Shown one piece after another: positions 698 through 34,369 of a stretch of DNA of 36,508 nt. The notes beneath the pieces were generated by a model that worked only from the letters and a program-made list of their open reading frames with translations, searched no databases and was not told where the DNA came from. Within the stretch, counting starts at the first letter, position 1; every line of letters begins with the position of its first letter. The stretch is from a virus. Lineage: Duplodnaviria > Heunggongvirae > Uroviricota > Caudoviricetes. Made by a program: the position numbers and the translations under genes. The DNA is taken from IMG/VR virus record IMGVR_UViG_2681813155_000011; one strand, given 5' to 3'.

Positions 698-1060
698 GGG
701 GCTGATTCTGGATTCGACGGGATTTGCGAAACCCAAGGTGCATGCCGAGGGGCGGTTGGCCTCGTAAAAAGCCGCAAAAAATAGTCGCAAACGACGAAAA
801 CTACGCTTTAGCAGCTTAATAACCTGCTTAGAGCCCTCTCTCCCTAGCCTCCGCTCTTAGGACGGGGATCAAGAGAGGTCAAACCCAAAAGAGATCGCGT
901 GGAAGCCCTGCCTGGGGTTGAAGCGTTAAAACTTAATCAGGCTAGTTTGTTAGTGGCGTGTCCGTCCGCAGCTGGCAAGCGAATGTAAAGACTGACTAAG
1001 CATGTAGTACCGAGGATGTAGGAATTTCGGACGCGGGTTCAACTCCCGCCAGCTCCACCA
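698..1060 (+). ncRNA. ssrA: tmRNA (SsrA), 363 nt
   Basis: Starts GGGGCTGATTCTGGATTCGACGGG and ends ...GGTTCAACTCCCGCCAGCTCCACCA, matching E. coli ssrA as I recall it; the 3' end is the prophage attachment site. Confidence 0.9.
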
Positions 1061-1099: not shown

Positions 1100-1183
1100 C
1101 TTAGGTAGTGGCGGCAAAATGGCGACAGACTTTTGCGTCCATCTTGCCTGTCGCCATCTTGAAATCATGCAAAGAGGTTTGAC

Positions 1184-1666
1184 ATGGAAGAACTTCACTT
1201 TGTTTACATCAATGCAAATGGTCGTATCGGTGTTCACTCAATACAGAGCATCAGTTATAGCGAAAATCACATACAGGGCATTTGTAAGAACACCGATCGA
1301 ATAAAAACCTTCCGAAAAGACCGCATTCTTAAACAATACGATTCACAAGAACAAGCCATTCAGGAATGCGCGTCATTCCTCCCCGAAAACTACTCACATC
1401 TCACTAAGCAGTCAGGTCCGAAAAAAAATACATTCGATGTGTGTTTCACCGGATTTAAGAAAGCAGATAAAGAAAGGTTGGTTGATAAGGCGAATGAACA
1501 AGGATTAACGGTAAGAACATCTGTAACCCAAAACCTTCAGATGCTCTGTTGCGGTTACAATGCAGGCCCATCAAAAGTATCGGCAGCCAGGATGAAAGGC
1601 ACTATCATCATAGATGAGCCTGGCTTTATACATTTTCTTGAAACGGGTGAGATCCCAGATGAATAA
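1184..1666 (+). CDS. Cargo protein with WYL-like N-terminal and BRCT-like C-terminal domain (function unknown)
   Basis: 160 aa, AGAGG 8 nt upstream of ATG. N-terminus ...HIQGICKNTDRIKTFRKDRIL resembles the WYL-domain end motif (R-x-FRLDRI). C-terminus DVCFTGFKKADKERLVDKANEQGLTVRTSVTQNLQMLCCGYNAGPSKVSAARMKGTIIIDE aligns by eye with the LigA-type BRCT fold pattern. Confidence 0.5.
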   Translation: MEELHFVYINANGRIGVHSIQSISYSENHIQGICKNTDRIKTFRKDRILKQYDSQEQAIQECASFLPENYSHLTKQSGPKKNTFDVCFTGFKKADKERLVDKANEQGLTVRTSVTQNLQMLCCGYNAGPSKVSAARMKGTIIIDEPGFIHFLETGEIPDE

Positions 1667-1692
1667 AAACCTGCCGTAGCAGGTTCTCTTTC

Positions 1693-1911
1693 TTAAAAAT
1701 TCATATGGCCCTGACCACCTGGCAATGGATGTGGAGGGGCTGTGGCAATCACTGCAGGTGTCACAATAAACCGGACCACTGTTTCATGGGTAACAAAAGT
1801 GCTCCCGCAGTTAATATTTTGGCACTGGCAGTAACGCTCTTTGGTGCTTTCTGTTACTTGAAAACTGCTCCTTGTGTGCGCCGCATGACCACACTTTGGA
1901 CAATTCATCAT
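1693..1911 (-). CDS. ogr: Ogr/Delta/B-family zinc-finger late-gene activator
   Basis: MMNCPKCGHAAHTRSS...ERYCQCQNINCGSTF...HPLP is the C2C2 Ogr pattern; lies beside gene D as in P2. Start placed at an internal Met of the 87-aa ORF. Confidence 0.75.
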   Translation of the reverse strand: MMNCPKCGHAAHTRSSFQVTESTKERYCQCQNINCGSTFVTHETVVRFIVTPAVIATAPPHPLPGGQGHMNF

Positions 1912-1979
1912 ATCCAGATCCCTACCTTTGCTATCAGAATCATTGCAATGATACACAAAATATCAATATTGAGAACCAT

Positions 1980-3080
1980 TTATTCCATTTCAAGATCACC
2001 AATTTTCACTTCAAGTTCAATACTGGTCGTAAAACCGTTATCCGGGCTGACGGTATGTGTCAGAGTCGTAATGGTCCATTCCGCATCATCTATTGGCTGT
2101 TTAAAGCCACTGACCTTCACAGGCATTTCCGTGTAGAGATCTGCCCGACCTTCCGCCAGTTGTAGCGAGAATGACGCAACACCGCGTTGCAGGCGTTCCC
2201 ACTGCATTTTCGCCGCTCGTTCGGCGTTGCTCCGGTTGGCATAAGTGCGATTAAGTACCAGCACGTTTTCATCCGTCCCCACCAGATAATCGCCCTGCTT
2301 CGCTTCCGGCTCTTTCTTCTGCTTCTTAGTTCTGCGCTTACGCTTCACCGTGGTGCTTTCTTTCTTCGCGGGTTCGCGGGTATGCAACCAGCTGGCAATG
2401 ACGCCCGTATAGGCTCCGCGATCTGCCAGGGTAAAGCGGTGACTGTCGCCGTCCTTACGCGTGATAGTGATCACCGGCAGTGGTTTACCGCTGGCGCTTT
2501 TGCCCTGTCCCTGCCGGATGAATAACAGATTGCCATTTTTCACCGACGCAATAGCACCGTACTGGCGCGCCAGTCGCATCAGAAAACTGCCGTCACTCTC
2601 ATTGGTCTGGTCTATATGTTCCACGGGTTTATCTGACAGGTCTTTACCCAATGCCATCTTCAGTTTGTGCCGTGCAGCTATTTCCTTCACCACTTCCCCA
2701 ACGGTGGTCTTGTGCCACGACTTTTCACGGCGGGTATTCAGCGTTTCACGAAAATCAGCACTTCGCGCCCGGATAGTCAGGCGGTCCGGTGCGCCAGTGT
2801 GTTCAATCTCGTCCACCGTGAATGCCCCTTTCGGGAAAAGCGGCTGCCCCTTCCAGCCCAGCGCCAGCGTAATAACCGCACCACGGCGCGGCAGCACGAT
2901 TTTTCCGTCGGCGTCGTCCAGCTCCAGATCAAGCTGGTCTGCTTCAAAGCCCCGATTGTCCGTCAGCGTCAAACTCATCAGGCGGTTATCCAGCACAGTG
3001 GTGATATCCCTGCCCTCAATACTGATGCTGCATGCGGGAGTTTTGTTGCCTTTGTTAAGCAGTTCAGAGCTGAAATTCAC
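1980..3080 (-). CDS. D: P2 gpD-like tail protein
   Basis: 366 aa, size and position (after U, before ogr) as in P2; 4-bp overlap with U. Confidence 0.75.
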   Translation of the reverse strand: MNFSSELLNKGNKTPACSISIEGRDITTVLDNRLMSLTLTDNRGFEADQLDLELDDADGKIVLPRRGAVITLALGWKGQPLFPKGAFTVDEIEHTGAPDRLTIRARSADFRETLNTRREKSWHKTTVGEVVKEIAARHKLKMALGKDLSDKPVEHIDQTNESDGSFLMRLARQYGAIASVKNGNLLFIRQGQGKSASGKPLPVITITRKDGDSHRFTLADRGAYTGVIASWLHTREPAKKESTTVKRKRRTKKQKKEPEAKQGDYLVGTDENVLVLNRTYANRSNAERAAKMQWERLQRGVASFSLQLAEGRADLYTEMPVKVSGFKQPIDDAEWTITTLTHTVSPDNGFTTSIELEVKIGDLEME

Positions 3081-3562
3081 GACAGCAGCCCTCCCACCGT
3101 TTTACTGATATCGCTTAAGGCAGACGTTGCCGTGTCCTGCAGATTATTCAGTTGCGCACTGAGATCACCGAACATATCGGACAGGGATTCATCCACCCGT
3201 TTGAGCGACAGGGTGAACTCAATCCGGCGCGGCATACCGTCGCGGAAAAACTCCGTTTTAGTCTGATTCAGTCCCTCAATCACATACATGCCGTAAATCG
3301 TGCCGCTGCCTTCAATCAGGGGCCATGCTTTCCCCTGTTCTGCCATCTGCTCCAGTACCAGCAACGACAGCCTGCCGCCTGTTATCTCCGGCATAAGAAC
3401 ACCAGAAAGCGTCAGCATGTCGTTGTCCGGTCCCAGAAACTGCGTGGACGGACGTCGGTTGACCCGGCTGTTTGCCGCATGTCGCCAGCTGCGTTGATAC
3501 TGCAGTTCCTGATACGGCACAGTGCGCAGCATAAACACGTACAATCCCAGCACCATCATCAT
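3077..3562 (-). CDS. U: P2 gpU-like tail protein
   Basis: 161 aa, between T and D, overlapping both; P2 synteny. Confidence 0.75.
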   Translation of the reverse strand: MMMVLGLYVFMLRTVPYQELQYQRSWRHAANSRVNRRPSTQFLGPDNDMLTLSGVLMPEITGGRLSLLVLEQMAEQGKAWPLIEGSGTIYGMYVIEGLNQTKTEFFRDGMPRRIEFTLSLKRVDESLSDMFGDLSAQLNNLQDTATSALSDISKTVGGLLS

Positions 3563-6500
3563 GCGTCGTATCCCCCCTGATCGCTGTAGTTACTCCTAGC
3601 TTTTGCCTTCAGCCTGCGTTCACGTTCATCAAGCTGGCGTGCCACCTCCCGCGCAATATCCTGCGCACTTTGTCCTGGCTGCGTCTGGATGATGATCTGC
3701 GTCGGTGCCTCAATCCGTTGAGCGGGCGGCACAGTGGCTGCACGACTCACCATCGCTTCGCCGCCTTTCGCGGGAAGTGCCAAAGGATGTAACGGCGGAA
3801 GCTCTGCAGGCGCGGCAGCAACGCCCATCATTCCGGCAACAACGGCAGCCAGTGCAGCTGTATTTCTCCGACTGGTCACGTTTGCCGGACCGTTGACAAT
3901 TTCAGGCCCGTTTTCACCGACAATGCCGAACTGCCCGCGCGGGATATAGCCGCCGCTGTCATACATCCCCGCAAAGCCATATCCCCATGACGGAAAACCA
4001 CCCGATGGCATCATCACTTTACCGTCTGCATTCACCGTCGCAGGTTGCTGACGCGTCACGCTTTCCGGCAGTTTCGCCTTTGCAGCCTCTTTACTGACAA
4101 TACCGAGTTTCTCCAGCAACCAGGAAACGCCGGATTTCAGGGAGTCCAACGGATGCATGACCATATTCAGCCCTTCCGCCAGTGCCTCCCCGAATCGTCG
4201 CCCCATTGCCGCTGCGCTCTGCAGTTCGGCAGAGGTCGACTTAACAGGCGTCAGCAGATCAGTAAACCAGCCCCACAACGCCTGTACTTTGTCGCCAATC
4301 CACTGGAACACGGGCTTAAGCGGTTCGAATGCAGCACTGATGGGACCTGCCGCCGCTTTGAATCCTTCCACCACGCCACCGAGAAATGCGGTGATGGGTT
4401 GCCAGTATTTCCAGACAACCAGCGCCACGCCCGCCAGTGCAGTAACCACAAGACCTATCGGACTGAGCAGAGCACCTAACAGACCAGATACGGCATACAG
4501 GGCAACGCGCAGCATCGCCAGCGGACCGGATGCCAGCACACGCAGCACCGCGCCTGCGGCAGCCAGTCCACCGCGTAGTGCTGCCAGTGGATTCATAAAC
4601 ATCACAGCAACCGCACGTAAACCGGATAATCCAGACCGCAACAGTGCAACCGGCACACCTGCTACAGTTTTCAGGACATTCCCCGTCAGTGATGCGGTGC
4701 GGCGCAAAGACGACAACGGCGCAGTAAGTAAACCCGCTGCGTTGCCCGATGAAGCAAGCCCGCGTCGCAGCAGTGCCAGTGGAGCGCCAGCTAACCAGGA
4801 CAACGCGCTGCTGGTTCGTGTTACTGCTGCCGTAACGGAAGGTAACGTTTTGATACCCAGCACAGAGAATCCCAGACGGATGACTGCCAGCGGCCCCAGC
4901 ACTGCAGCCAGCGCCACCGCTAAGGTGCCGAGGCCTACGGTAACCGCAGCCACAACAGCCGCTACTTTCATCAGTGTGCCTGTCAGTTCCGGGTTAGCTT
5001 CCACCCAGCGGCGCAACGCCCCCGTGATGCTTTTTACCGTGTACAGAATATCCATCAGCGGCTGGCGCAGCGTTTCGCCCAGGCTGCTGAAGGTGTTCTG
5101 CGCTCCGGTTTTGACCAGCAACCACTGAGCGGAAAGTGAGTCTTTGTTGATGTCGGATTCTTTCTGCATGGAACCGAGCGCATCATTGCCCGCTGTCAGT
5201 TTTAGCTGGCGCTGCAGTTCCGGAAGGTTGTTTGCCAGTTTCGCTGCATCATCACCAAACTCTTTACCAAACAACATGGTCATGGCAGACAGACGCTTGT
5301 CCTGCGGCAGTGCGTTCACCTTCTCCAGCACACGCTGGATAGTTCCCATCGCATCCTTCGTCATCTGCTTTTCAATCACTTCAGGATTGAGTTTCAGCAG
5401 ATTCATCCCTTCAAAGAAACTCTTACTTTGCATGGTGGCAATGGACAATTCACGCACCATCGCGTTTGCTGCACTGGCAGCAACCTCCGGCGCAGCGCCC
5501 AGTGTCAGGAAGGTGGAACCCAGCGCCGCCGCTTTACGATAATCCAGACGATCTGCCACACCGCCCAGGCGTTGCATGACATCAATGATGTCTGACCCTT
5601 TCGACATGGCGTTATCATCCAGATAGTTCAGCGCATCACCGAGCTGTTCAATATTGCGGGTAGGGATTTTGTAGAGCTGGGCGATTTTCCCCAGACTTTC
5701 TGACAGTTCATCCGCTGGCAGCTCAAAGGCTGTTGCCGCCTTTGCTGCCGTGCTGGCGAAGGCCAGCAGGTCACGTTTCTGGTCTTCCCAGCTGTCGTCA
5801 GGATTTGCGACGTTCATGCGCGCACCACCTTCAACAAGTGCGGCAAAGTCCACAGCACCGTTTTCCATCGGCAACTGTTCGCTGGCAGCCTTGATGGCAT
5901 CCTGCATTTCGTAAAAACGCGCAGTGCGGTTGCCATTATCATCACGCAGACCATTGACCTGCTTTGCCACACCTTTCATGGCATCTTCCATGCTGGTATA
6001 GCTTTTTACTGCTGCCATCACTGGCGCACCCATTGCCAGCCCTGCAGCCGTGGTAGTGGCTCCGGCTCCTGCGATGCGATCGCGCACTTCAAGCCGTCTT
6101 GAGTATTGTTCTCTGGCAGCGTTCATCCGTGCCTGTTGTTCACCCAGACGTTTAAGTGCTTTTTGCTGGCCCTCCAGTGCCTGCCTTGTTTCTTCAGCAT
6201 TTTTCTTAAGTTCTCGCTGGGCACTACTGAGTTGTCTGGTATCAATCCCTGATTCTTTAAGTGCCTGACGTTGTCTCTGGACCGCCCCCAACAAGCCGTT
6301 ATAGGTCTGCTGAAGTTCCTGTACTCGTGTTTTGGCCTGACTGAATAACTTTGCCTGCGCGGCGGTTGGCCTGTTAGTGGCAGCAAATTGTGTGGCGAGT
6401 TTTGCCGCCTCTTCGCGGGCTGCGTTCAGGTTGTTGGCTGTTATGGCTAGTTGCGAGCGCGTCTTGCGAAATTCATCAATTCTGCCAGCCTGCTTATTCA

Positions 6501-6636
6501 GTTCTTTGAGGCTGTTTCGGGTATTCTGAATTGCGCCAGCCAGCTCTTTCGAACTGGCCTGTGCAACACGGAATGGGCGGGTGAGTTTGTCAACCGCATT
6601 AAGAATGACCTGCAGCCGCAGGTTGTTATCACTCAT
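3559..6636 (-). CDS. T: Tail tape-measure protein (gpT-like)
   Basis: 1025 aa, coiled-coil-rich N-terminus and Ala/Gly/Leu-rich hydrophobic middle typical of tape-measure proteins; directly downstream of E/E'. Confidence 0.85.
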   Translation of the reverse strand: MSDNNLRLQVILNAVDKLTRPFRVAQASSKELAGAIQNTRNSLKELNKQAGRIDEFRKTRSQLAITANNLNAAREEAAKLATQFAATNRPTAAQAKLFSQAKTRVQELQQTYNGLLGAVQRQRQALKESGIDTRQLSSAQRELKKNAEETRQALEGQQKALKRLGEQQARMNAAREQYSRRLEVRDRIAGAGATTTAAGLAMGAPVMAAVKSYTSMEDAMKGVAKQVNGLRDDNGNRTARFYEMQDAIKAASEQLPMENGAVDFAALVEGGARMNVANPDDSWEDQKRDLLAFASTAAKAATAFELPADELSESLGKIAQLYKIPTRNIEQLGDALNYLDDNAMSKGSDIIDVMQRLGGVADRLDYRKAAALGSTFLTLGAAPEVAASAANAMVRELSIATMQSKSFFEGMNLLKLNPEVIEKQMTKDAMGTIQRVLEKVNALPQDKRLSAMTMLFGKEFGDDAAKLANNLPELQRQLKLTAGNDALGSMQKESDINKDSLSAQWLLVKTGAQNTFSSLGETLRQPLMDILYTVKSITGALRRWVEANPELTGTLMKVAAVVAAVTVGLGTLAVALAAVLGPLAVIRLGFSVLGIKTLPSVTAAVTRTSSALSWLAGAPLALLRRGLASSGNAAGLLTAPLSSLRRTASLTGNVLKTVAGVPVALLRSGLSGLRAVAVMFMNPLAALRGGLAAAGAVLRVLASGPLAMLRVALYAVSGLLGALLSPIGLVVTALAGVALVVWKYWQPITAFLGGVVEGFKAAAGPISAAFEPLKPVFQWIGDKVQALWGWFTDLLTPVKSTSAELQSAAAMGRRFGEALAEGLNMVMHPLDSLKSGVSWLLEKLGIVSKEAAKAKLPESVTRQQPATVNADGKVMMPSGGFPSWGYGFAGMYDSGGYIPRGQFGIVGENGPEIVNGPANVTSRRNTAALAAVVAGMMGVAAAPAELPPLHPLALPAKGGEAMVSRAATVPPAQRIEAPTQIIIQTQPGQSAQDIAREVARQLDERERRLKAKARSNYSDQGGYDA

Positions 6637-7065
6637 CGTTGGCCCCGCTTCTCTGAATCGCTTTATACCGCCATTCCAGCACTTCGGTCAGCGGCATAAC
6701 GTCAGTAACGGATGGCGGCCAGTGAAAGATGGTGGCGATATCAGCCACCAGATCGTCAACCGTCAGGCTGTCGGTAAACCGGCAAGCACCGACTTCTTCA
6801 ACAAAAAAGTGACAACCTCAACCGACATGGCAGTGAGATCTGCCGGGTCCATCTCTGCAATTTCCTGTGCAGTCAGTGCCGGACTGGAGATACGGGGGAT
6901 CACGGTCATCATCGCGTTCACATCCATATCCATAATGGCCTGCAGGCGTGTACCGCGCAGCGCACCGGACTGCGGTTTACGCAGCACAATTTCGGTGATT
7001 TCTGTTTTACCGCGCTTGATGGGGGTATCCAGTTGAATAGTCTTTTCAGTCTGCTTATCGCTCAT
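6629..7065 (-). CDS. gpE+E' -1 frameshift product (predicted)
   Basis: Reading by eye, a -1 shift at TTTTTTG (plus-strand 6802..6808) gives an extension that stops overlapping the T start codon (ATGAGTGA), as in P2 E+E'. Confidence 0.5.
6763..7065 (-). CDS. E: Tail assembly chaperone gpE-like
   Basis: 100-aa ORF between FII and T; ends ...TFLLKKSVLAGLPTA and contains the slippery heptamer T-TTT-TTG near its 3' end. Confidence 0.75.
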   Translation of the reverse strand: MSDKQTEKTIQLDTPIKRGKTEITEIVLRKPQSGALRGTRLQAIMDMDVNAMMTVIPRISSPALTAQEIAEMDPADLTAMSVEVVTFLLKKSVLAGLPTA

Positions 7066-7119
7066 TTTGCTGTCCTGTAAATTGGGTTCTGGCGCGGTAT
7101 CCCGCGCCGTTCAGATACA

Positions 7120-7635
7120 TCAGAGGCCGAGGGCGTTGCGGTGCGCTTCCATCAGGTCCACACCGTCCACAATTTCCACCATGTTGATAAGGTCCACTTC
7201 ATAGAGCACCTCACCATTGATGGTCAGCTTCGCGTAGCTGTTGGTACTGGTCACTTTGGTGGTGTTGCTTTCGCCCGTCTTCCACTCGCCGGAATCCACT
7301 TCTTTGTGACGTCCACGCACCACAAGCTCCACGGCCTGCACTTCCCCGGTATCGTCACGCTGGATAGAGCCGGTAAAGCGCAGCTGAATGCCATCTACCG
7401 TGGCTTTGCCCATCTGCTTAAACAGCAGCAGTTCAGTACCACCAATGGAAAATTCTGTGTCCAGCGCACTGTCATCAAGCCCCAGATCCACATCCACTGC
7501 ACCCGGCATTCCGCCGCCGCGATACTTCTCATATTTGCGGGTGAATTTCGGCAGCGTCAGCGACTCAACGATCCCCTGCCAGTTGTTCCCGTCGTTAAAC
7601 AGGTTCAGATGTTTTAATTTGCGTGGTAAAGCCAT
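7120..7635 (-). CDS. FII: Tail tube protein (FII-like)
   Basis: 171 aa, directly downstream of the sheath gene; P2 order and size. Confidence 0.8.
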   Translation of the reverse strand: MALPRKLKHLNLFNDGNNWQGIVESLTLPKFTRKYEKYRGGGMPGAVDVDLGLDDSALDTEFSIGGTELLLFKQMGKATVDGIQLRFTGSIQRDDTGEVQAVELVVRGRHKEVDSGEWKTGESNTTKVTSTNSYAKLTINGEVLYEVDLINMVEIVDGVDLMEAHRNALGL

Positions 7636-7644
7636 GTTGTCCCC

Positions 7645-8817
7645 TTACGCGCTGACCTGGCTGGCGAAATTCACCAGGTACTGATCGGTGATGCGCTGGC
7701 GCAGCATCAGATTTTCAAGTGGCGGCACTGGCGTGTAGTCATAGTCGATGGTGAGTTTTCCGGCTTTCAGCGTGTCTTTGTCGTTCACCGACTCATCCAG
7801 CCAGCAATCACCACCAATGAGATAGCCCTGACTGACCAGGCTGCGTATTTTGGCGCGGATACCTTCGATAATGTCGCGGGCCAGCGACGGGTTAAGCGGT
7901 TTATCCACCGCCCACATGTGTGCTTCTGCCATTGTGTCCGTCAGCACCTGCGCCGTGCGGGTGTAGTTTTCGAAGGCAAAAAGCGGATCATCGCTCAGAC
8001 AGCGGGAACCCCAGAAGCGGAAACCGTCTTTACGCACAAGCGTGGTGACGTCGTTCTGGTTCAGCAGACCTGCATCGGTTGCCGGGTCCTGCAGATCCCA
8101 GAACACATCTGCAGAAATTCCGGTGACACCGTTCACGCCCACGTTGGACAGGCTTTTGTGCCACCCGGTCTGCTCATCAATTTTGGCACGCAGACCAAGT
8201 GCACGGGCGGTGGCATATGCCGTTGCTTCGGCATTCAGCACCGTGTCCCAGCCAGTAAAGTTGGGCCAGATCAGCATTCCTTCGCGCTGGCTGAAGTTTT
8301 CACGGTAAGTGATCGCCTCCTGTACCGTCTTGCAGCCATACGCTGACAGGTAAGCAAACCCACGCAGGCTTTGCGCCACGCTCAGCAACTCAGTCGCAAC
8401 GGCTTTGTTATCGTGACCTGGCACGCCGAGAATGCGCGGTTTAACGCCGAGCTGTGACTGGGCAGATAACAGAGCTTTCATGCCTGTTTTTTTACCTTCA
8501 GCAGTCACTGCGCCGATGATATTGGTCGTGGTTTCTTCTTCCGTTTCACCCTGCGGCACACGCACAACAACGGTCACGGGTTTTGCCTGGTCAGCGATGG
8601 CATCCAGCGAACGGGCCAGCGTGCCGGACTCACCCGCTTTACCGCTGGCAGTCAGCACATCAGTGATCAGCACAGGTTTGTTAAGAGGAAACATTTTTGC
8701 ATCGGCATCATCGCCCGTGCAGACCATGCCCACGATGGCGGTGCTCACCGTGGTAATGGATCGGGTGCCTTCGTTGACTTCAACAACGCGCACCCCGTGG
8801 TGGTAATCCTGAGCCAT
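7645..8817 (-). CDS. FI: Contractile tail sheath protein (FI-like)
   Basis: 390 aa, first gene after a TGT-N12-ACA element; size matches P2 FI. Confidence 0.8.
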
Positions 8818-8893
8818 AGTGGCGAACCTCCTGATTGGATTAGGCTTCGCCCTATGTTGAAGTGATTGTGCCTGACAAACAGCTAAGCGCAGT

Positions 8894-8911
8894 TGTACCG
8901 TTATTCACACA
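8894..8911 (-). promoter_or_regulatory. Candidate Ogr-dependent late promoter element (TGT-N12-ACA) upstream of FI
   Basis: tgtaccgttattcacaca, about 85 bp upstream of the FI start codon. Confidence 0.5.
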
Positions 8912-8959
8912 AAATGACGGTATTTGTCTACTTGCAGGGATAATCAAAATAATGCTGAT

Positions 8960-9532
8960 TCAGGGGGATTCATTACTCTTATTTGCCGGAAATTTTCTAT
9001 AAATTGTGGAAACACCCACATCAAAAATCAGTGCAATACGCTGTCTTGATTCTCCGGCCTCGAGTAAACGCCCAATCTGTGCCCACTGTTCGGTGGTCAA
9101 CTTAGGACGGCGTCCACCTACTCTGCCTTTGGCACGAGCTGCAGCCAGCCCTGCCCTGGTACGTTCAACTATCAGTTCGCGTTCCATTTCAGCCAGGGCA
9201 CCCATGACATGAAAAAAGAAACGGCCCATTGGGGTACTGGTATCAATACTGTCAGTCAGGCTTCGGAAATTCACACCACGCTGGCGCAACTCCTCTATCA
9301 GCGTAACAAGATGCCGCATACTGCGCCCCAACCTGTCCAGCTTCCAGACAACCAGCGTGTCTCCTGCCGATAGTGTCCTGAGCAGCTTTTTCAGCCCCGG
9401 TCTGTCGGACTTAGTGCCACTGATTTTATCCTCAAAAATCCGCTCACATCCCGCGCAGTTCAGTGCATTACGTTGCAAATCGGTGTTCTGGTCATTTGTT
9501 GACACGCGTACATAGCCAATAAGCATGATCAT
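8960..9532 (-). CDS. Serine DNA invertase (Hin/Gin/Cin/Pin family)
   Basis: N-terminus LIGYVRVSTNDQNTDLQRNAL with catalytic-Ser motif and a C-terminal HTH; abuts an invertible tail-fibre segment. Real start may be the third codon. Confidence 0.88.
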   Translation of the reverse strand: MIMLIGYVRVSTNDQNTDLQRNALNCAGCERIFEDKISGTKSDRPGLKKLLRTLSAGDTLVVWKLDRLGRSMRHLVTLIEELRQRGVNFRSLTDSIDTSTPMGRFFFHVMGALAEMERELIVERTRAGLAAARAKGRVGGRRPKLTTEQWAQIGRLLEAGESRQRIALIFDVGVSTIYRKFPANKSNESP

Positions 9533-9553
9533 CCCCCTGAATAAAAACCGGAG

Positions 9554-10105
9554 ATGATGCCAGTTAGCCGTTATCTCTGCATTTTCATAAACGTTGGTTT
9601 GGGAGAAGGTTCAGCATTACCGGTTGGTGTGCCTGTTCCGTGGCCTTCAGCTACACCACCGACAGGCTGGTTGAAATGCAATGGTGCAGCTTTTTCTGCT
9701 GAAGAATACCCGGAACTGGCAAAGGCTTACCCGACAAATAAATTGCCTGATTTACGCGGTGAGTTTATTCGTGGCTGGGATGATGGACGCGGTGTGGATA
9801 CGGGGAGGGCAATATTATCATCTCAGGGCGATGCCATACGTAATATCTATGGTGAGTTCAAGACTGTAAACGCCGAAAATTATTCAATATGGGAATCAGT
9901 AGACTCTTTTAAGGGGGCAGTGGTGCCTTTGAACCCCTCAACGGACAATAGTTATTTCTCCATAATCAATAGTATGTTGACACAAAGAACAGATGGCTCT
10001 GTTTACCCAACAGTGATTGGCCTTGATGCTTCAAGAATTGTTCCAACTGCAAACGAAAACCGTCCACGAAATATTGCATTTAACTTTATCGTGAGGGCTG
10101 CATAA
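9554..10105 (+). CDS. Alternative tail-fibre C-terminal (variable) segment, silent in this orientation
   Basis: The ORF runs across the left crossover site and encodes a tail-fibre C-terminal-type domain (PVPWPSATPPTGWLKCNGAAF...LPDLRGEFIRGWDDGRGVD); it would fuse to the constant part of H after inversion. Confidence 0.6.
   Translation: MMPVSRYLCIFINVGLGEGSALPVGVPVPWPSATPPTGWLKCNGAAFSAEEYPELAKAYPTNKLPDLRGEFIRGWDDGRGVDTGRAILSSQGDAIRNIYGEFKTVNAENYSIWESVDSFKGAVVPLNPSTDNSYFSIINSMLTQRTDGSVYPTVIGLDASRIVPTANENRPRNIAFNFIVRAA
9594..9608. repeat. Left inverted repeat (crossover site) of invertible tail-fibre segment
   Basis: ttggtttgggagaag; its reverse complement occurs at 11450..11464 inside gene H. 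Both copies encode G-L-G-E in their respective frames. Confidence 0.7.
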
Positions 10106-10707
10106 TGGATAACGCTGTATTAAATAGCGAGCTTATTGCCACGAAGGCGGGGAATATTACCGTCTATAGCTATGATGGTGAAACTCGGGAATATATTTCC
10201 ACTTCAAATGAATATCTTGCCGTTGGTGTTGGTATCCCGGCATATTCCTGTCTGGATGAACCTGGTATACATAAGGCGGGTTATGCAATCTGCCGTTCGG
10301 CAGATTTAAACTCATGGGAATATGTGCCAGACCATCGCGGTGAAATCGTCTATAACACCGAAACGGGAGACACCAAAGAAATCACAACTCCGGGTGATTA
10401 CCCCGAAAATACAACCACTATCGCCCCATTAACGCCATACGATAAATGGGATGGTGAGAAATGGGTGACCGATACTGAGGCACAGCATCGCGCCGCAGTA
10501 GACGCGGCAGAAGCACAGCGTCAGTCACTGATTGATACTGCAATGGCTTCCATTAGTCTGATTCAACTGAAATTACAGGCCGGGCGGAAACTGACGCAGG
10601 CAGAAACAACCCGGCTTAACGCTGTGCTGGATTACATTGACGCGGTGACGGCAACAGATACCAGCACCGCGCCGGATGTCATCTGGCCTGAACTGCCGGA
10701 GGCGTAG
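10105..10707 (+). CDS. Alternative tail-fibre assembly protein (Tfa/U'-like)
   Basis: 200 aa; C-terminus ...[28 protein letters not shown] is the tail-fibre-assembly signature; followed by a hairpin plus T-run (10720..10775). Confidence 0.7.
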
Positions 10708-11098
10708 GCCATTCAATATCGAGTGCTGTTGAAGTATTAATACGCATCAATAGCACTCGATATTTTTTCCATGCCAGTAACAGTTTCGTTTCATCATCTG
10801 TTGCCATACCTAAATCAACCGCATCCTGAAGCGGAGCTATTACATTCGTTGCCTCTGCTATCAGTGCAGATTTCTTTTCATCATTTATTAAGGCTAATTG
10901 TTCTGGTGTTGGAGAAGGACGGTCAACAATGACAGGATGACCGTTCTCACCACAGGTAATCATTTTTGTTACACTCTGTGCATTAATCAGTGTTTTCCAC
11001 TCTGATTCCGAGATTTCCACTGCATCATCAGGAATATTGGTGCCGTGAAATTCAGTCGAATAAAATCCGTTTGTCGATGCAGAATAAAAATATGACAT
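10679..11098 (-). CDS. G: Tail-fibre assembly protein (gpG-like), currently expressed copy
   Basis: Start taken at [13 protein letters not shown]; C-terminus ...[30 protein letters not shown] is Tfa-like; directly after the H stop. Confidence 0.7.
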
Positions 11099-14015: not shown

Positions 14016-14361
14016 TCTCTGCTCCTGTTGATACGGAAAGGGAAACAGGCACACCGTTATTACGCCGCCCGGTCAGCTCCACCACCATTGAACCGTCAAA
14101 ATTGCTGTTAATGGTGATGGAATCCAGCGTCAGCCGTGGCTCCCAGCGACTCAGCGCCACATACACTGCCGACATGACCTGCAGGCGTAATGCCGGATTT
14201 TGTGGCTGGTCTATCAGTGCCGACAGCAGGGAACCATATTCCCGACGGGCAATGCGGCTACCCTGCGGCGTCAGCAAAATGTCCCGCACCGACTGGCGCA
14301 GATGATCAATATCAGTAATGGCTTTACCGCTGGTATTGTTCATCCCGCTATAAAGCGTCAT
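14002..14361 (-). CDS. W: Baseplate protein gpW-like (gp25-like)
   Basis: 119 aa; size and position between V and J. Confidence 0.7.
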   Translation of the reverse strand: MTLYSGMNNTSGKAITDIDHLRQSVRDILLTPQGSRIARREYGSLLSALIDQPQNPALRLQVMSAVYVALSRWEPRLTLDSITINSNFDGSMVVELTGRRNNGVPVSLSVSTGAENGSD

Positions 14362-14936
14362 ACCGGGCCTCCGGTTGTGTCGCCGCCTTTCAGGACGTCA
14401 GTATGCTGATGCGCATCAACCACGATCCCGTTAGAACTCATCGCTCCGCCGCCCTGGGTAACGCCACCATTGATCACCACTTCGCTGTTAATGCGCGTGC
14501 GGTCAGCCTCCAGTACAAACTCACTGGTTTTCATGGTGATGTTGTCAGCGGCCTCAATGACCATTGATTTGATGCCCCTGACATACCAGCGCCCGGTAGT
14601 GGGTTCGTATTCAAACCAGCCGCCGTCAGGATGTTCTGTCACGCAGGCGTCTGCCGACGTCGACGGTGGTGCGAACTGATTCGAATAGACAGCGGGCAGC
14701 GCAAAGGCAGTTTCCAGATTGCCGCCCAGACTCAGCAGCACCACCTGCTCACCTTCCGATGGTCGCCACCATGTGCGGGCATTCCCGGCACGCAGCGTCA
14801 GCCAGCTGATCCAGTTGGTTTCAAGCTCGCCCGTTTTCACCCGGCAAAGCCAGTTTTCCCGGTCCACTTCGGTGACTACACCAGTGCGGATCAGGTTGGT
14901 GATAAGGCGCATGATTTCGGTTAGTTGTGCGTTCAT
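14358..14936 (-). CDS. V: Baseplate spike/assembly protein gpV-like
   Basis: Start taken at MNAQLTEIMRLITNLIRTGVV (internal Met of the 228-aa ORF), because a TGT-N12-ACA element lies in the upstream part of the longer ORF. Confidence 0.7.
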   Translation of the reverse strand: MNAQLTEIMRLITNLIRTGVVTEVDRENWLCRVKTGELETNWISWLTLRAGNARTWWRPSEGEQVVLLSLGGNLETAFALPAVYSNQFAPPSTSADACVTEHPDGGWFEYEPTTGRWYVRGIKSMVIEAADNITMKTSEFVLEADRTRINSEVVINGGVTQGGGAMSSNGIVVDAHQHTDVLKGGDTTGGPV

Positions 14937-14982
14937 AGGGTTAGGTTGCACGGACCTTGAATCTATGGCATCAATACGTCCT

Positions 14983-15000
14983 TGTGTGGTAAATGACACA
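14983..15000 (-). promoter_or_regulatory. Candidate Ogr-dependent late promoter element (TGT-N12-ACA) upstream of V
   Basis: tgtgtggtaaatgacaca, about 50 bp upstream of the proposed V start. Confidence 0.45.
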
Positions 15001-15031
15001 AATACAATTCCAATCAAAGAAAGGTAAAAGA

Positions 15032-15562
15032 ATGAGCCATCCAATTGATTATTACGCTATAGAAGAACACGCAAGAATAATTGAGCAATTATGCTGTTCA
15101 TCTGAATTTTATTTACAGCGTATATATTCCACACAGAAAGTATATGATGGTTCTATAGTAACTGAATTTGAAATGGAGGAGTTATCGTACAACGGATGGT
15201 TGGAATATACCATTAGCAACAATCTTATTAGCCTTTGTACAAAACTACGAATTCTCCAAGACACTAGTGAACATGAGTGGAACCCAGATTACTCACCTGA
15301 GAAAGAAGCATTTGAAGAACATGAAAATATACTTTTTGTTATAGATGGTCATGTTAAAGATTCTATACGCGAATGCTGCAATAAAATTATTCACGCATTA
15401 AGTTTTGAGTTAACAAAAAAGACCGGCAAAAATGGAATAAAATATTGGGACGGTTCTATTATTGCTTCTGGGGTTCAAAACAAAAAAAACTGGAAAATTA
15501 AAATAGACCTTTTCCCTTTTTGCCAAAGCATAAAAAGTTATTTAAGTTTATTAAGAGCGTAA
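15032..15562 (+). CDS. AT-rich cargo (moron) gene at the P2 'orf30' position, function unknown
   Basis: About 176 aa from MSHPIDYY (the ORF opens at 14993); opposite strand to the flanking S and V operons; visibly lower GC than its neighbours; contains ...IRECCNKIIHA (R-x3-N-x3-H spacing). Confidence 0.5.
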   Translation: MSHPIDYYAIEEHARIIEQLCCSSEFYLQRIYSTQKVYDGSIVTEFEMEELSYNGWLEYTISNNLISLCTKLRILQDTSEHEWNPDYSPEKEAFEEHENILFVIDGHVKDSIRECCNKIIHALSFELTKKTGKNGIKYWDGSIIASGVQNKKNWKIKIDLFPFCQSIKSYLSLLRA

Positions 15563-15567
15563 ACATT

Positions 15568-16020
15568 CTAATTTTTCATCAATAAATACTTTAAAAGTAA
15601 ATCTCTTACTTCATTTTCAGTATGTTCATTTAAACCCAGCAATTTTCGGGATGGATACTTAATGACTCCCCCCTTTGGACTGACGCGATCGCGCAGACCG
15701 TAGTGATGAACACGGGCAATACGCTGTACCTTACCTTCAAACTGTACGCTGGCAGAATCCGCGCTGGCGGCAGTTCTCAGGTATTTTGTGGTGCGCAGCT
15801 TTGCAAACATCTGACGTTTGATGCGCCCCTTCTTGCTGCGTGCTGTTACCCTGCGCGGCTCATAACTGCTGCCATCTGGATTGCGCTGCATCCTGATATT
15901 CTGCTGCTGTGTCCGGCGCAGTTCCTGCGCCAGCTGGCGCATCATTCGGCTTCTTGCGGCTGGTTCCAGATTCGCCAGCAAAGCACTCAGCCAGTCGTCC
16001 ACCTTCTGCAGTTCAGCCAC
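15568..16020 (-). CDS. S: Tail completion protein gpS-like
   Basis: 150 aa; position and size as P2 gpS; overlaps R. Confidence 0.7.
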   Translation of the reverse strand: MAELQKVDDWLSALLANLEPAARSRMMRQLAQELRRTQQQNIRMQRNPDGSSYEPRRVTARSKKGRIKRQMFAKLRTTKYLRTAASADSASVQFEGKVQRIARVHHYGLRDRVSPKGGVIKYPSRKLLGLNEHTENEVRDLLLKYLLMKN

Positions 16021-16856: not shown

Positions 16857-17546
16857 TCAGCGCCGCGCGCTGCGTTTCGATGGTGTGGCTGGCGCTGTTA
16901 AGCCGCCACGACTGCCAGCCCAGCNNNNNNNNNNNNNNNNNNNNNNNNNNNNNNNNNNNNNNNNNNNNNNNNNNNNNNNNNNNNNNNNNNNNNNNNNNNN
17001 NNNNNNNNNNNNNNNNNNNNNNNNNNNNNNNNNNNNNNNNNNNNNNNNNNNNNNNNNNNNNNNNNNNNNNNNNNNNCGGTTATCCAGCCCCTGATTAAAC
17101 ACACCTTTCACATAAACCCAGCGCGGCAACTGTCGGCACGCTTCTGCCCAGCGCCGCTGATTGAGCAATTTCACCAGCGTAGAACTGCAGGCATTGCCCG
17201 TTCCCACGTTGAAGGCAAACGACACCGTAGCGTCATATACCTTCTGCGGCGGCTGTTGCTTCACACACCTTTCCAGCGCCCGCTCCACACGCAGCACGTT
17301 GGAAATAAGCCCTTCTGCTGCCTGTCGTTCCGTGATTGTTTTGCCGGGAATGACGCCCGACGTATTTCCAATGCCGTCGGTCCAGACACCCGCGCTGCAC
17401 TGATACGGCTGCAGACGACAACCTTCGTAATCGGCAATCAGTTTCAGCCCCTCCACGGAGGTGTGAAGCTGCTGAAACCCCGGCAGCGTGGCAGCAATAG
17501 CCAGCACGGCCCCGACAAGGCAGCGTTTAACGATTGATGGATTCAT
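16857..17546 (-). CDS. Endolysin (lysozyme-like, probable signal-anchor-release type), interrupted by the gap
   Basis: N-terminal hydrophobic segment CLVGAVLAIAATLPG followed by a lysozyme-like body; the 3' part of the ORF runs into the N-run, so the true end is unknown. Confidence 0.6.
   Translation of the reverse strand: MNPSIVKRCLVGAVLAIAATLPGFQQLHTSVEGLKLIADYEGCRLQPYQCSAGVWTDGIGNTSGVIPGKTITERQAAEGLISNVLRVERALERCVKQQPPQKVYDATVSFAFNVGTGNACSSTLVKLLNQRRWAEACRQLPRWVYVKGVFNQGLDNXXXXXXXXXXXXXXXXXXXXXXXXXXXXXXXXXXXXXXXXXXXXXXXXXXXXWAGSRGGLTAPATPSKRSARR
16925..17076. other. Assembly gap (152 N)
   Basis: Run of n characters in the sequence; interrupts the lysis region. Confidence 1.
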
Positions 17547-24022: not shown

Positions 24023-24721
24023 TTATTTGTTTCTTCTTTGTTCACGCCTTGTCTTGGCTTCGATAAGGCGTTGAGGTTCAGTGTAAAGCCGTTCTAAAAA
24101 AAGATAGGTAAAATCTTCAAGATCCTCAGCAGCAGCTTTATCCAAAATACCTTCATGCGCTCCATCATTTCCGTCATCTTTAACGCATTCAGCTAGTTCC
24201 CTTAAAGCTTCAGGCAGTAGATGATTATCAAATAACCACTCCATTCTTAACCCTAGGCTTCTCCTTATTTTTTGCGCAGGCCCTTGCTCCCCATCAGGAA
24301 GAAGTCCTTTTGTGGCATAATCAAGGCAAAGCCTAAACATGGTTGCTGCTGCATTATAACAACCTATAGCCAAACATTTCGCCCCTTCCTCATATGCACT
24401 ATTGATATGCTCAGGTAAGAACTCTGGTGGCTCCTCTACTGCTAAGTCTGCCGGTGATATAGGCCTAACAACCTCTGCAACTTCCTTTAAGCCGAATATT
24501 CCACTTTCCCAATTATAGCCATCTAAAGTTTTATTTTTCGTTAAAGGTCTGCAAAGAAACATTGTCGTTTTATGACACTCTCGGCAAACACAATAGACCT
24601 CGTACTCGTATGTTTTACCCCCGCCCAATGCATTGTAAACCCTAGTGCAATTCAGCCCATTAACATCAAACGCTATTTTTTGTGATCCACATCGTGGACA
24701 GTCATCCACTAACATAACCAT
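24023..24721 (-). CDS. Cargo protein: N-terminal zinc ribbon + C-terminal DUF4145-like domain (candidate single-gene defence/abortive-infection protein)
   Basis: 232 aa. N-terminus CPRCG...CVCRECHK (four Cys); C-terminus ...LPEALRELAECVKDDGNDGAHEGILDKAAAEDLEDFTYLFLERLY resembles the GN-x-AAH core of DUF4145 as I recall it. GGAGG 8 nt upstream; sits between the candidate cos and Q. Confidence 0.5.
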   Translation of the reverse strand: MVMLVDDCPRCGSQKIAFDVNGLNCTRVYNALGGGKTYEYEVYCVCRECHKTTMFLCRPLTKNKTLDGYNWESGIFGLKEVAEVVRPISPADLAVEEPPEFLPEHINSAYEEGAKCLAIGCYNAAATMFRLCLDYATKGLLPDGEQGPAQKIRRSLGLRMEWLFDNHLLPEALRELAECVKDDGNDGAHEGILDKAAAEDLEDFTYLFLERLYTEPQRLIEAKTRREQRRNK

Positions 24722-31782: not shown

Positions 31783-32805
31783 ATGACCATCAGAAAACAG
31801 CCGAACGGAAAATGGTTGTGTGAGTGCTATCCCAATGGACGCAATGGTAAGCGCGTGCGTAAGCAATTTGCTACCAAAGGCGAAGCCATTGCATTTGAAA
31901 GCTTCACCATGGACGAAGTAAACAAAAAGCCATGGCTTGGTGAGAAGGAAGATCGGCGGCGATTATCAGAAGTGATTGAGCAGTGGTATTCCCTATATGG
32001 TCAAACACTCGCAGACCCCAAACGCCTGATGGCGAAACTTAGAATTATCTGTAATGGTCTAGGCGATCCCATCGCCTCTGAGCTGACAGCAGGTGATTTC
32101 ACAAAATATCGGGAAGCCAGATTAAAGGGGGAGGTCCAAAATGAAGACGGCTCGTTCATGTCACCCGTTAAACCTCGCACAGTTAATCTTGAGCAGCGTA
32201 ACCTGTCATCGGTGTTCGGTACATTGAAAAAACTAGGGCACTGGTCCGCACCAAACCCGCTGGCAGGGCTTCCAACCTTCAAAATTGCTGAAGGTGAATT
32301 GGCTTTTCTTTCCACGGACGAAATCAAACGCCTGCTTAATGCCTGCGCCGAATCTCAAAACACCAGCCTACTAATGATTGCAAAAATATGCCTGGCTACT
32401 GGTGCGCGATGGAGTGAAGCAGAAAACTTGCAGGGCCATCAGTTATCAAAATACCGGATCACCTATACCAAGACAAAAGGTAAGAAAAATCGTACCGTGC
32501 CGATATCTCAAAATCTGTATGATGAACTCCCCAAGAATAGAGGGAAGTTATTCACGCCATGCAGAAAGGCTTTTGAACGAGCGGTCAAACGGGCTGGTAT
32601 TGAACTGCCTGAAGGTCAGTGTACCCATGTTCTGCGCCATACATTCGCCAGTCATTTTATGATGAACGGTGGAAACATACTCGTTTTGAAAGATATTCTT
32701 GGGCATTCAGATATTAAAATGACTATGATTTATGCACATTTTTCCCCTGATCATTTAGAAGATGCAGTAACTAAAAATCCACTTTATTCGCTATTAAAGG
32801 ACTAA
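31783..32805 (+). CDS. int: Tyrosine integrase (P2 Int-like)
   Basis: 340 aa; C-terminal catalytic region with HxLRHT and a Tyr near the end (...MIYAHF); immediately after cI. Confidence 0.85.
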   Translation: MTIRKQPNGKWLCECYPNGRNGKRVRKQFATKGEAIAFESFTMDEVNKKPWLGEKEDRRRLSEVIEQWYSLYGQTLADPKRLMAKLRIICNGLGDPIASELTAGDFTKYREARLKGEVQNEDGSFMSPVKPRTVNLEQRNLSSVFGTLKKLGHWSAPNPLAGLPTFKIAEGELAFLSTDEIKRLLNACAESQNTSLLMIAKICLATGARWSEAENLQGHQLSKYRITYTKTKGKKNRTVPISQNLYDELPKNRGKLFTPCRKAFERAVKRAGIELPEGQCTHVLRHTFASHFMMNGGNILVLKDILGHSDIKMTMIYAHFSPDHLEDAVTKNPLYSLLKD

Positions 32806-32808
32806 ATA

Positions 32809-34035: not shown

Positions 34036-34120
34036 AAATAGATAAAACAAGCAAACACACAATAACACTAACATACTAATTTTAAAGATAAATACATGTT
34101 TTTATTATAGTAAAAATGGT

Positions 34121-34167
34121 ATGTAGGAATTTCGGACGCGGGTTCAACTCCCGCCAGCTCCACCAAA
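34121..34167. repeat. attR: 47-bp direct repeat (duplicate of the ssrA 3' end)
   Basis: Identical to 1016..1062; followed by the native ssrA downstream sequence including a GC hairpin + T-run (34215..34248). Confidence 0.85.
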
Positions 34168-34369
34168 ATTCTCCATCGGTGATTACCAGAGTCATCCGAT
34201 GAAGTCCTAAGAGCCCGCACGGCGCAAGCCCTGCGGGCTTTTTTGTGCTCCGAATTTGTCCCGCGAAGTCTGATGCCAACTAATTAAATCCGATCCTTTT
34301 AGGCACCTTGTTAGGCACTTCATAAAGCTATATTGTCTTTGAGGTGCCTAAAACTATGGAAACCCGGCA

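Follow-up and report, generated by a model that had tools for sequence, protein, structure and literature searches.

What does a single AT-rich gene do between two late operons of a P2-related prophage, on the strand opposite to both? The question arises at positions 14937-15567 of a 36,508-nucleotide stretch of tailed-phage DNA (IMG/VR record IMGVR_UViG_2681813155_000011; the whole of this stretch is called the window below), where one plus-strand open reading frame (ORF), here called the cargo gene, encodes 176 residues plus a stop (15032-15562). Positions 14700-15900 of the window are 100% identical to Escherichia phage Cartapus (OV696611/NC_070909; Peduoviridae, Elveevirus), the P2-related prophage carried by the Crohn's-associated, adherent-invasive E. 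coli strain LF82. The gene is LF82_787 (CARTA_14, YP_010663986, WP_000019234), and the Cartapus record lists it as PQA61_gp14, a "hypothetical protein" flanked by the baseplate spike (gpV homologue) and the tail completion protein (gpS homologue). No mention of WP_000019234 was found in the literature. Our preferred reading, tentative and just short of an even call, is that the cargo gene is an autonomous single-gene moron in the S-V slot whose soluble product of ~20 kDa is a latent HEPN-like defence ribonuclease (RNase).

The cargo gene is bordered on the left by gpV, the baseplate spike and first gene of the V late operon (14358-14937, minus strand), and on the right by gpS, the tail completion gene that ends the O-to-S late operon (15568-16020, minus strand; conserved part 15672-16020). 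The P2 record shows S (8915-9367) and V (10308-10943) on one strand and Orf30 (9439-10224) on the other, with the pV activator site (10239-10266) separating Orf30 from V. Because this is the same S/Orf30/pV/V layout, the position and orientation of the cargo gene are exactly those of P2 orf30, one of the three regions of P2-like phages that hold horizontally acquired genes, together with tin/old and Z/fun (PMC3091744). A different ORF of 741 bp occupies the orf30 region of R18C, another P2-like phage (PMC6823313). The initial annotation had described a lone plus-strand gene of ~176 residues opposed to both flanking late operons and had assigned it to the P2 orf30 moron position, a known cargo location; the coordinates and strands, the P2 record, and both papers agree with this. 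A moron in the orf30 slot is an already known kind of thing.

Comparing the occupants of the slot, it is apparent that P2 Orf30, R18C ORF16, a 250-aa ORF of E. coli NC101, and GmrSD of E. coli H7 share the gpS-pV insertion point with the cargo gene, and that all of them are low-GC, non-essential accessory cargo oriented opposite to both late operons. Their sequences, however, are unrelated to that of the cargo gene; P2 Orf30 is 261 aa long, and BLASTP between it and the cargo protein returned E 0.22. The NC101 ORF (L049, 2229-2981) has no Pfam match, whereas the H7 slot (L050, NZ_CP010171, 2415-3949) holds a type IV restriction gene (Pfam GmrSD_N, E 1.4e-17). In every filled slot sampled, the cargo strand was opposite to the late operons. 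The cargo gene is absent from KP12, Kp48xx, 500465-1, PCP06171, and 210221272, and PCP06171 and 210221272 have an empty slot with a 68-bp S-V gap. Since it holds GmrSD in H7 and an unrelated 250-aa ORF in NC101, the S-V slot behaves as a small polymorphic cargo or defence site. The presence of GmrSD in the same slot supports, by location, a role of the cargo gene in conflict, and a 2026 preprint describes defence systems lying among the late genes of P2, together with a hotspot located downstream of gpL.

The base composition of the cargo gene is foreign to its surroundings. The guanine-plus-cytosine (GC) content is 0.333 over the interval 14937-15567 and 0.324 over the cargo ORF (0.266 at third codon positions), compared with 0.572 in gpV and 0.57 in the non-replaced part of gpS, which bears out the low-GC island of the initial annotation (0.333 versus about 0.57). 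Relative to the window (mean 0.51, standard deviation 0.066 in 531-nt windows), the ORF has a z score of -2.8, and in 200-nt sliding windows the GC content drops from 0.55-0.62 to 0.27-0.39 between ~14900 and 15700. About seven low-GC patches occur in the window, the cargo island being one of them. In a blastn comparison with the empty-slot phage KP12, whose two flanks are 95.7% identical, homology ends at 14949 and restarts at 15672; the exchanged, mosaic module is therefore 14950-15671 (GC 0.324), which spans the pV promoter region and the cargo gene as well as the AT-rich 3' end of gpS and measures 722 bp in Cartapus versus 152 bp in KP12. The AT-rich end of gpS amounts to its last ~35 codons (15568-15671, minus strand; GC 0.298 versus 0.57 in the rest of S). 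In 16 of 16 IMG/VR contigs with close homologues, the cargo gene lies in the S-V slot; because gpS identity in these contigs stays high (86-100%) while gpV identity falls to 60%, the cargo gene travels with the end of S, with recombination near pV. No direct or inverted repeats were found flanking the island, and an Rfam scan of the island returned no RNA family.

As an accessory gene, the cargo gene turned up in only 22 of the 5,426 complete genomes of E. coli, always with an identity of at least 99.2%, and 21 of these 22 copies are intact; a gpV allele close enough to give a megablast match was found in 1,023 of the same 5,426. Orthologues in the same slot occur in a Salmonella prophage (74% amino acid identity) and an Enterobacter prophage (60%), and these are AT-rich as well (GC 0.37-0.38 versus 0.53-0.59). 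Between the Cartapus and Salmonella copies, the ratio of nonsynonymous to synonymous substitution rates (dN/dS) is 0.094 at dS 1.6, and the cargo gene is thus under purifying selection. The gene contains an A8 homopolymer (15482-15489, plus strand). E. coli E47 (NZ_CP121151) has A7 instead of A8, which causes a frameshift and an annotated 157-aa truncated product; possible causes are a sequencing error, decay, and slip-strand switching.

The sole substantial ORF in the interval extends, from its first ATG, over 14993-15562 (189 aa, plus strand). RefSeq uses the ATG at 15032, all homologues begin with M-[SPT]-H there, and a Shine-Dalgarno-like GAAAGG (15019-15024, plus strand) ends 7 nt before it, and we therefore take this ATG as the true start of a 176-residue protein. 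The upstream ATG at 14993, used in the ENA record and by PHROG 18838, falls within a TGT-N12-ACA dyad at 14983-15000 (TGTGTGGTAAATGACACA), the presumed Ogr-type late activator site of the V operon promoter. The dyad is centered 54.5 nt ahead of the V start codon, and the activator site annotated in P2 is centered 55.5 nt from the V transcription start. A dyad of this kind, with the same spacing to V, is found in KP12 with its empty slot, in the Salmonella and Enterobacter relatives, and at the annotated site of P2. The dyad lies inside the interval, which corrects the earlier view that the interval ends at the V promoter element. A candidate -10 hexamer of the cargo gene promoter, TACAAT (15003-15008, plus strand), abuts the dyad, judging from the sequence, and TGGTACAAT is found at the equivalent place in the Enterobacter relative; a consensus scan of the plus strand gave no full sigma-70 match. 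In Cartapus, 95 nt precede the cargo gene and 5 nt follow it, as the cargo and gpS genes are convergent with 5 nt between their stops. No terminator-like hairpin was found between the two.

The published RNA sequencing of LF82 (Misson et al., PMC9928086, S1 table) reports expression as log2(5+fpkm), where fpkm denotes fragments per kilobase per million reads. LF82_787 reached 3.51/2.71 in LB overnight, 5.06/5.16 in B1, 5.89/5.97 in B6, 5.11/5.28 in MB1, and 4.57/4.38 in MB6 (macrophages, 6 h). Both neighboring genes, V and S, stayed at 2.3-3.6, except for V in MB6 (4.3/4.1) (PMC9928086). Since LF82_787 is elevated in B1, B6, and MB1 while V and S remain low, the cargo gene is transcribed on its own in the lysogen, with the flanking late genes silent. 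We considered whether the Cartapus morons named by Misson et al., LF82_783 and LF82_789, include the cargo gene; they are other genes.

The cargo protein has no match in Pfam, NCBIfam, or PADLOC. It is a full-length member of PHROG 18838 (E 6.6e-127), which has no assigned function and whose profile starts at the upstream ATG (189 aa), a start that the family alignment does not support. A word-seeded search returned 16 close relatives, and a profile search of 1.84 billion representatives returned at least 464 clusters (50% identity clusters) of distant relatives at E ≤ 0.001; among the matches listed, there were no domain fusions, and all were stand-alone proteins (fragments up to 246 aa). A second search gave 220 proteins, all named "hypothetical" and none with a Pfam domain, from Vibrio, Aliivibrio, Photobacterium, Aeromonas, Methylocystis, Chitinibacter, Taibaiella, and a Candidatus Argoarchaeum metagenome-assembled genome (MAG). 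Overall, the family is new: it is unannotated, without a Pfam model or a solved relative, and widely mobile.

Alignment of 233 near-full-length relatives reveals a small set of conserved polar residues. Arg73, Asn117, and His121 are 100% conserved, Lys118 98%, Arg113 96%, Asp77 93%, and Cys116 90%, while position 114 is Glu in 79% and Asp in 6%; Gly147, Trp154, and Trp139 are conserved structural residues. The invariant residues persist down to ~20% identity in bacteria and archaea. Arg73 and Asp77 belong to the second long helix (codons 73-77, 15248-15262, plus strand). The remaining polar residues are collected in the segment Ser111-Ala122 (SIRECCNKIIHA; 15362-15397, plus strand), an R113-x3-N117-x3-H121 signature with Glu114, Cys116, and Lys118 that is invariant in one of our alignments (A1). 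Both the absence of an obvious family and the motif IRECCNKIIH had been pointed out in the initial annotation. The databases are empty save for a PHROG of unknown function, and the motif is present at residues 112-121 (15365-15394) and conserved family-wide.

The loci of the relatives place the family in diverse mobile contexts. In Aliivibrio sp. S4MY1 (L041; NZ_JARACP010000031, 1100-9600), a distant homologue forms a single-gene cassette in a chromosomal integron array. There, attC-like repeats of ~130 nt at 5853-5987 and 6547-6681 bracket the gene (6001-6537), and the co-oriented array has at least 10 copies of the repeat. In Pseudoalteromonas (L043, 5909-6589), the homologue is likewise a single-gene integron cassette, bounded by 38-nt attC-like repeats at 5909 and 6552. 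Among the neighboring cassettes at these Vibrionaceae and Pseudoalteromonas loci are those encoding GNAT acetyltransferases, DinB, glyoxalase, and ParE/Phd. The Aeromonas relative (L011) resides in a filamentous prophage with an integrase and Zot/RstB/Rep, the Methylocystis relative in a prophage, another in an AlpA island, and others on IMG/VR phage contigs; a narrower alignment used in a profile scan of genome contigs gave 6 loci. The archaeal MAG relative is found beside PIN-nSTAND and PLD-helicase genes. Across these loci, the neighbors include portal, capsid, CI repressor, resolvase, ParE/Phd, AbiU, Lit, and GNAT cassettes, and in high-GC hosts the family gene is again AT-rich relative to its surroundings. 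No conserved partner gene or antitoxin was found, the contexts differing in every lineage examined, and the cargo gene always occurs as a lone gene. Two upstream ORFs of similar size (71 aa) at two of the loci were considered as a partner and rejected, as they are unrelated to each other.

The AlphaFold2 model of the cargo protein, built from a 16-sequence alignment, has a mean predicted local distance difference test score (pLDDT) of 90.7 and a predicted template modeling score of 0.86. It consists of helices 7-34, 45-78, a short 89-95, the motif-bearing 112-120, and 160-175, together with strands 101-105, 124-131, 137-149, and 152-159. A 28%-identical member modeled from a different alignment (pLDDT 86.5) has the same element order, with the motif helix at 111-120 and His120 closing it. 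As this distant member was modeled separately, the fold is a property of the family. By definition, HEPN domains form an up-down bundle of four helices that has inserts between the second and the third; helix 3 ends in an Rx4-6H motif that runs into the start of the next loop and whose Arg is followed by a polar residue, and helix 2 often supplies an acidic residue close by the motif (Anantharaman 2013, PMC3710099). The model of the cargo protein agrees with this provided that 112-120 counts as a shortened helix 3 and the beta meander as an additional insert preceding helix 4. In the model and alignment, the motif is carried by helix 112-120 with His121 directly after it, the polar Glu114 follows Arg113, and Arg73 and Asp77 lie one turn apart in helix 2. 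From helical periodicity only, the conserved residues would be expected to cluster in space.

The closest known system is RAZR (PD-T7-4; 9y9c), a zinc ribbon joined to a DUF4145 HEPN RNase, in which alanine at R146 or H154 abolishes defence (PMC13017515). Like the cargo gene, RAZR is a single-gene system found on prophages and integron cassettes; both proteins are small and soluble and have R-x3-N-x3-H at a helix end with the Arg and His 8 residues apart, and RAZR is latent until triggered by phage proteins, as is proposed for the cargo protein. The cargo motif RECCNKIIH corresponds to RIVGNQAVH in the RAZR chain 9y9c (which reads DICRIVGNQAVHPGE) and to RITGNNAVH in 32 RAZR relatives (which read LRITGNNAVHPG). 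However, there is no detectable sequence or profile similarity beyond these nine residues. The cargo protein lacks the Cys4 zinc ribbon, its N terminus being a long helix instead, and the cargo family differs from RAZR in its beta-sheet insert and very short motif helix. Minimal and integron-cassette HEPN proteins (Protein Data Bank (PDB) 3jrt Vpc_cass2; 5yep SO_3166; 7ae2; 1ylm; 1jog; 1wwp) are also among the closest known systems.

The window itself encodes a bona fide DUF4145 protein. At 24023-24721 (minus strand), a 232-aa protein combines an N-terminal Cys-rich zinc ribbon with a DUF4145 domain (Pfam PF13643, 30.3 bits against a cutoff of 23.1, E 4.5e-7; PADLOC PD-T7-4/RAZR, E 1.2e-6), and its motif VKDDGNDGAHEG reads K-x3-N-x3-H. 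Because this protein scores as DUF4145/PD-T7-4, Cartapus carries a true RAZR-like gene besides the cargo gene. The gene is LF82_788/CARTA_1, in the gpA-portal (old/tin) hotspot, and its RNA-seq value rises from log2 4.7 in LB to 9.5 in macrophages (PMC9928086). BLASTP of the cargo protein against this DUF4145 protein was negative. A filamentous Vibrio phage, 10N.261.54.B5_PE001 (L019, PQ189324, 736-1401), has a RAZR/PD-T7-4 homologue (DUF4145, 61.5 bits) beside a DUF2726 gene. Given this homologue and the cargo-gene relative in the filamentous Aeromonas prophage, inoviruses seem to carry both kinds of solo R-x3-N-x3-H proteins.

A number of observations weigh against a HEPN-like defence RNase. 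The helix-2 pair is R-x3-D, the reverse of the usual HEPN E-x3-[KR]; the R113-H121 spacing is x7, outside the canonical Rx4-6H, although the DUF4145 branch has the same x7; helix 3 is only 9 residues long; and a 35-residue beta meander between helices 3 and 4 is no described HEPN feature. Pfam and PADLOC scans of 52 diverse members gave no consistent match and none to DUF4145, PD-T7-4, or a HEPN-type model, with cutoffs of E 10 for the cargo protein and up to E 1 (Pfam) and 10 (PADLOC) for the 52 relatives, whereas the DUF4145 positive controls scored 61.5, 63.5, and 30.3 bits. The hhalign comparison with the RAZR/DUF4145 profile, made both with the DUF4145 protein of the window included and with it left out, was not significant (probability 0.26%, E 0.23, over 21-26 columns); nothing but the motif aligned, the best local register placing motif on motif. 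Searching PDB sequences with the family profile returned no match, and Foldseek against PDB and BFVD gave nothing better than E 0.08. Misson et al. did not call LF82_787 a moron, its expression in LB overnight being near background (PMC9928086), an omission that arose because their threshold was applied to the LB overnight data. Moreover, promoter occlusion and antisense silencing, invoked below, are inferences from the sequence only, and any defence, toxicity, or RNase activity of the cargo protein is predicted by analogy.

Since the Foldseek, hidden Markov model, and hhalign comparisons fail and the clustering of the residues is an expectation from helical periodicity, membership in HEPN is not established. 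Of the HEPN/DUF4145-like nuclease core suggested in the initial annotation, the motif, its spacing, and its placement at the end of helix 3 stand, whereas the profile, hidden Markov model, and Foldseek matches that would go with it do not. A mechanism like that of a DUF4145-type HEPN is nevertheless the best-supported guess, drawn by analogy.

The main alternative, possible although doubtful, is that the cargo gene encodes a functional protein of a new non-HEPN family whose R-x3-N-x3-H likeness is coincidental, such as another enzyme, a ligand or protein binder, an anti-defence protein, a regulator of the host in the gut or macrophage, or a signaling-nucleotide sponge. The failure of all statistical homology tests and the atypical alpha/beta half of the model would follow readily from such a family, but the invariant Arg, Asp, Arg, Asn, Lys, and His on two adjacent helices resemble a phosphodiester-cleaving or phosphate-binding site. 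The habitats of the family, integron cassettes and prophage cargo slots with AbiU, Lit, and GmrSD, are typical of defence or toxin genes, and members found as ordinary chromosomal genes, both in bacteria and in an archaeal MAG, are a further point against this alternative. As for its anti-defence version, such genes are usually expressed early in infection and not from the lysogen.

Under the preferred reading of a latent HEPN-like RNase, the cargo protein would possess a HEPN-like four-helix core formed by H1 (7-34), H2 (45-78), an insert, the short H3 (112-120), a three-strand beta insert, and H4 (160-175). Arg113, Asn117, and His121 are predicted to line one face of H3, with His121 at its end, and Arg73 and Asp77 would be contributed by H2. 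By analogy with DUF4145/RAZR and other HEPN proteins, these residues may constitute a metal-independent RNase site, probably completed by dimerization. The enzyme would be present at a low level and latent in the lysogen until an infecting phage switches on its activity, and activation would lead to growth arrest or abortive infection before the invader's cycle ends, protecting the lysogen population, as with RAZR and the lactococcal Abi HEPN proteins. The beta-sheet insert is a candidate sensor or regulatory surface. During the lytic cycle of Cartapus itself, the late activator bound at the dyad would start pV leftward and occlude the cargo promoter, which abuts or overlaps it. In addition, unterminated late transcription from O to S would run antisense through the cargo gene and on into the V operon; such read-through is expected because the cargo and gpS genes are convergent, 5 nt apart, and without a terminator-like hairpin.

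The convergent gpS transcript, antisense to the cargo gene, also suits a second and unlikely alternative, in which the cargo protein is not a phage-defence effector but an addiction toxin that mainly stabilizes the prophage or integron array and is neutralized by an unrecognized antitoxin, for instance an antisense RNA or some factor of the host. Among the recognized systems of chromosomal integrons, toxin-antitoxin cassettes are the most common, and they stabilize the integrons, ParE/Phd cassettes lie near family members, and HEPN proteins are classic toxins of such systems. However, there is no conserved partner ORF: the 71-aa upstream ORFs of two loci are unrelated, the contexts differ everywhere, and the 95 nt before and 5 nt after the cargo gene in Cartapus are all that surround it. 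Most related prophages have an empty slot and show no apparent harm from it, and the frameshifted copy persists in E47. That the ORF is decaying or spurious in AT-rich junk DNA is extremely improbable, for the absence of annotation or family, the near-background expression in LB, and one frameshifted copy are outweighed by a dN/dS of 0.094 over a synonymous distance of 1.6, invariant residues across 233 relatives, two independent and confident AlphaFold models with the same topology, and clear transcription in B1, B6, and MB1; a nonfunctional ORF is excluded by the dN/dS, the family-wide invariants, and the confident models.

Several other features were noted in the window. At its left end, 698-1060 (plus strand) is a full-length transfer-messenger RNA gene, ssrA (Rfam RF00023, 295.8 bits). 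A 160-aa ORF at 1184-1666 (plus strand) matches BRCT weakly, short of the Pfam cutoff, and in its C-terminal 70 residues it matches PADLOC PDC-S48 (E 1.7e-7). With 483 nt, it has the same length as LF82_783, which is a match in length only, as the coordinate offsets between LF82 and the window vary; LF82_783, a "putative exonuclease," is a Cartapus moron expressed 15-fold above background (PMC9928086). In the lysis-gene region, a run of 152 N (16925-17076) interrupts the ORF at 16857-17546 (minus strand). The lowest GC in the window (minimum 0.30) is reached at 32271-34400, another candidate cargo region. It contains a 408-aa ORF (32809-34035, plus strand) without a Pfam or PADLOC match, located between an integrase-like gene (31783-32805) and a second tyrosine integrase (34370-35611).

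The S-V (orf30) slot has been known as a cargo site for two decades, and the systematic hotspot studies consulted have focused on the gpA-portal and Z/fun sites or mentioned late-gene hotspots briefly. Here, the slot is seen to carry, besides other occupants, an orphan family whose members also move about in integron cassettes and in further kinds of phage. Single-gene defence systems abound in the cassettes of chromosomal integrons, solo DUF4145/PD-T7-4 genes are common there, and Esos, a HEPN-only integron cassette of Vibrio cholerae, is antiviral. It is conceivable, though rather doubtful, that the family as a whole, with the cargo gene as the first member to be noticed, represents unrecognized, widely mobile, stand-alone immune effectors that combine a divergent HEPN-like or convergent R/N/H RNase site with an infection-sensing beta-sheet module; if true, sensor and effector would be united in one protein that differs from RAZR, AbiD/F/J/V, and the MNT-HEPN toxins. 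As a kind of defence, a solo effector of HEPN-like type would itself be known already, and the novelty is the family. The cargo gene is a well-defined, cheap-to-test defence candidate rather than a surprise, and its stronger expression in B1, B6, and MB1 than in LB makes for easy testing in the established LF82 system. Should it prove not to be a nuclease, the gene still encodes a conserved, mobile protein that merits a function. If it is a latent RNase, it would be a compact one-gene defence module and a new sequence branch with the R-x3-N-x3-H site recently validated in RAZR.

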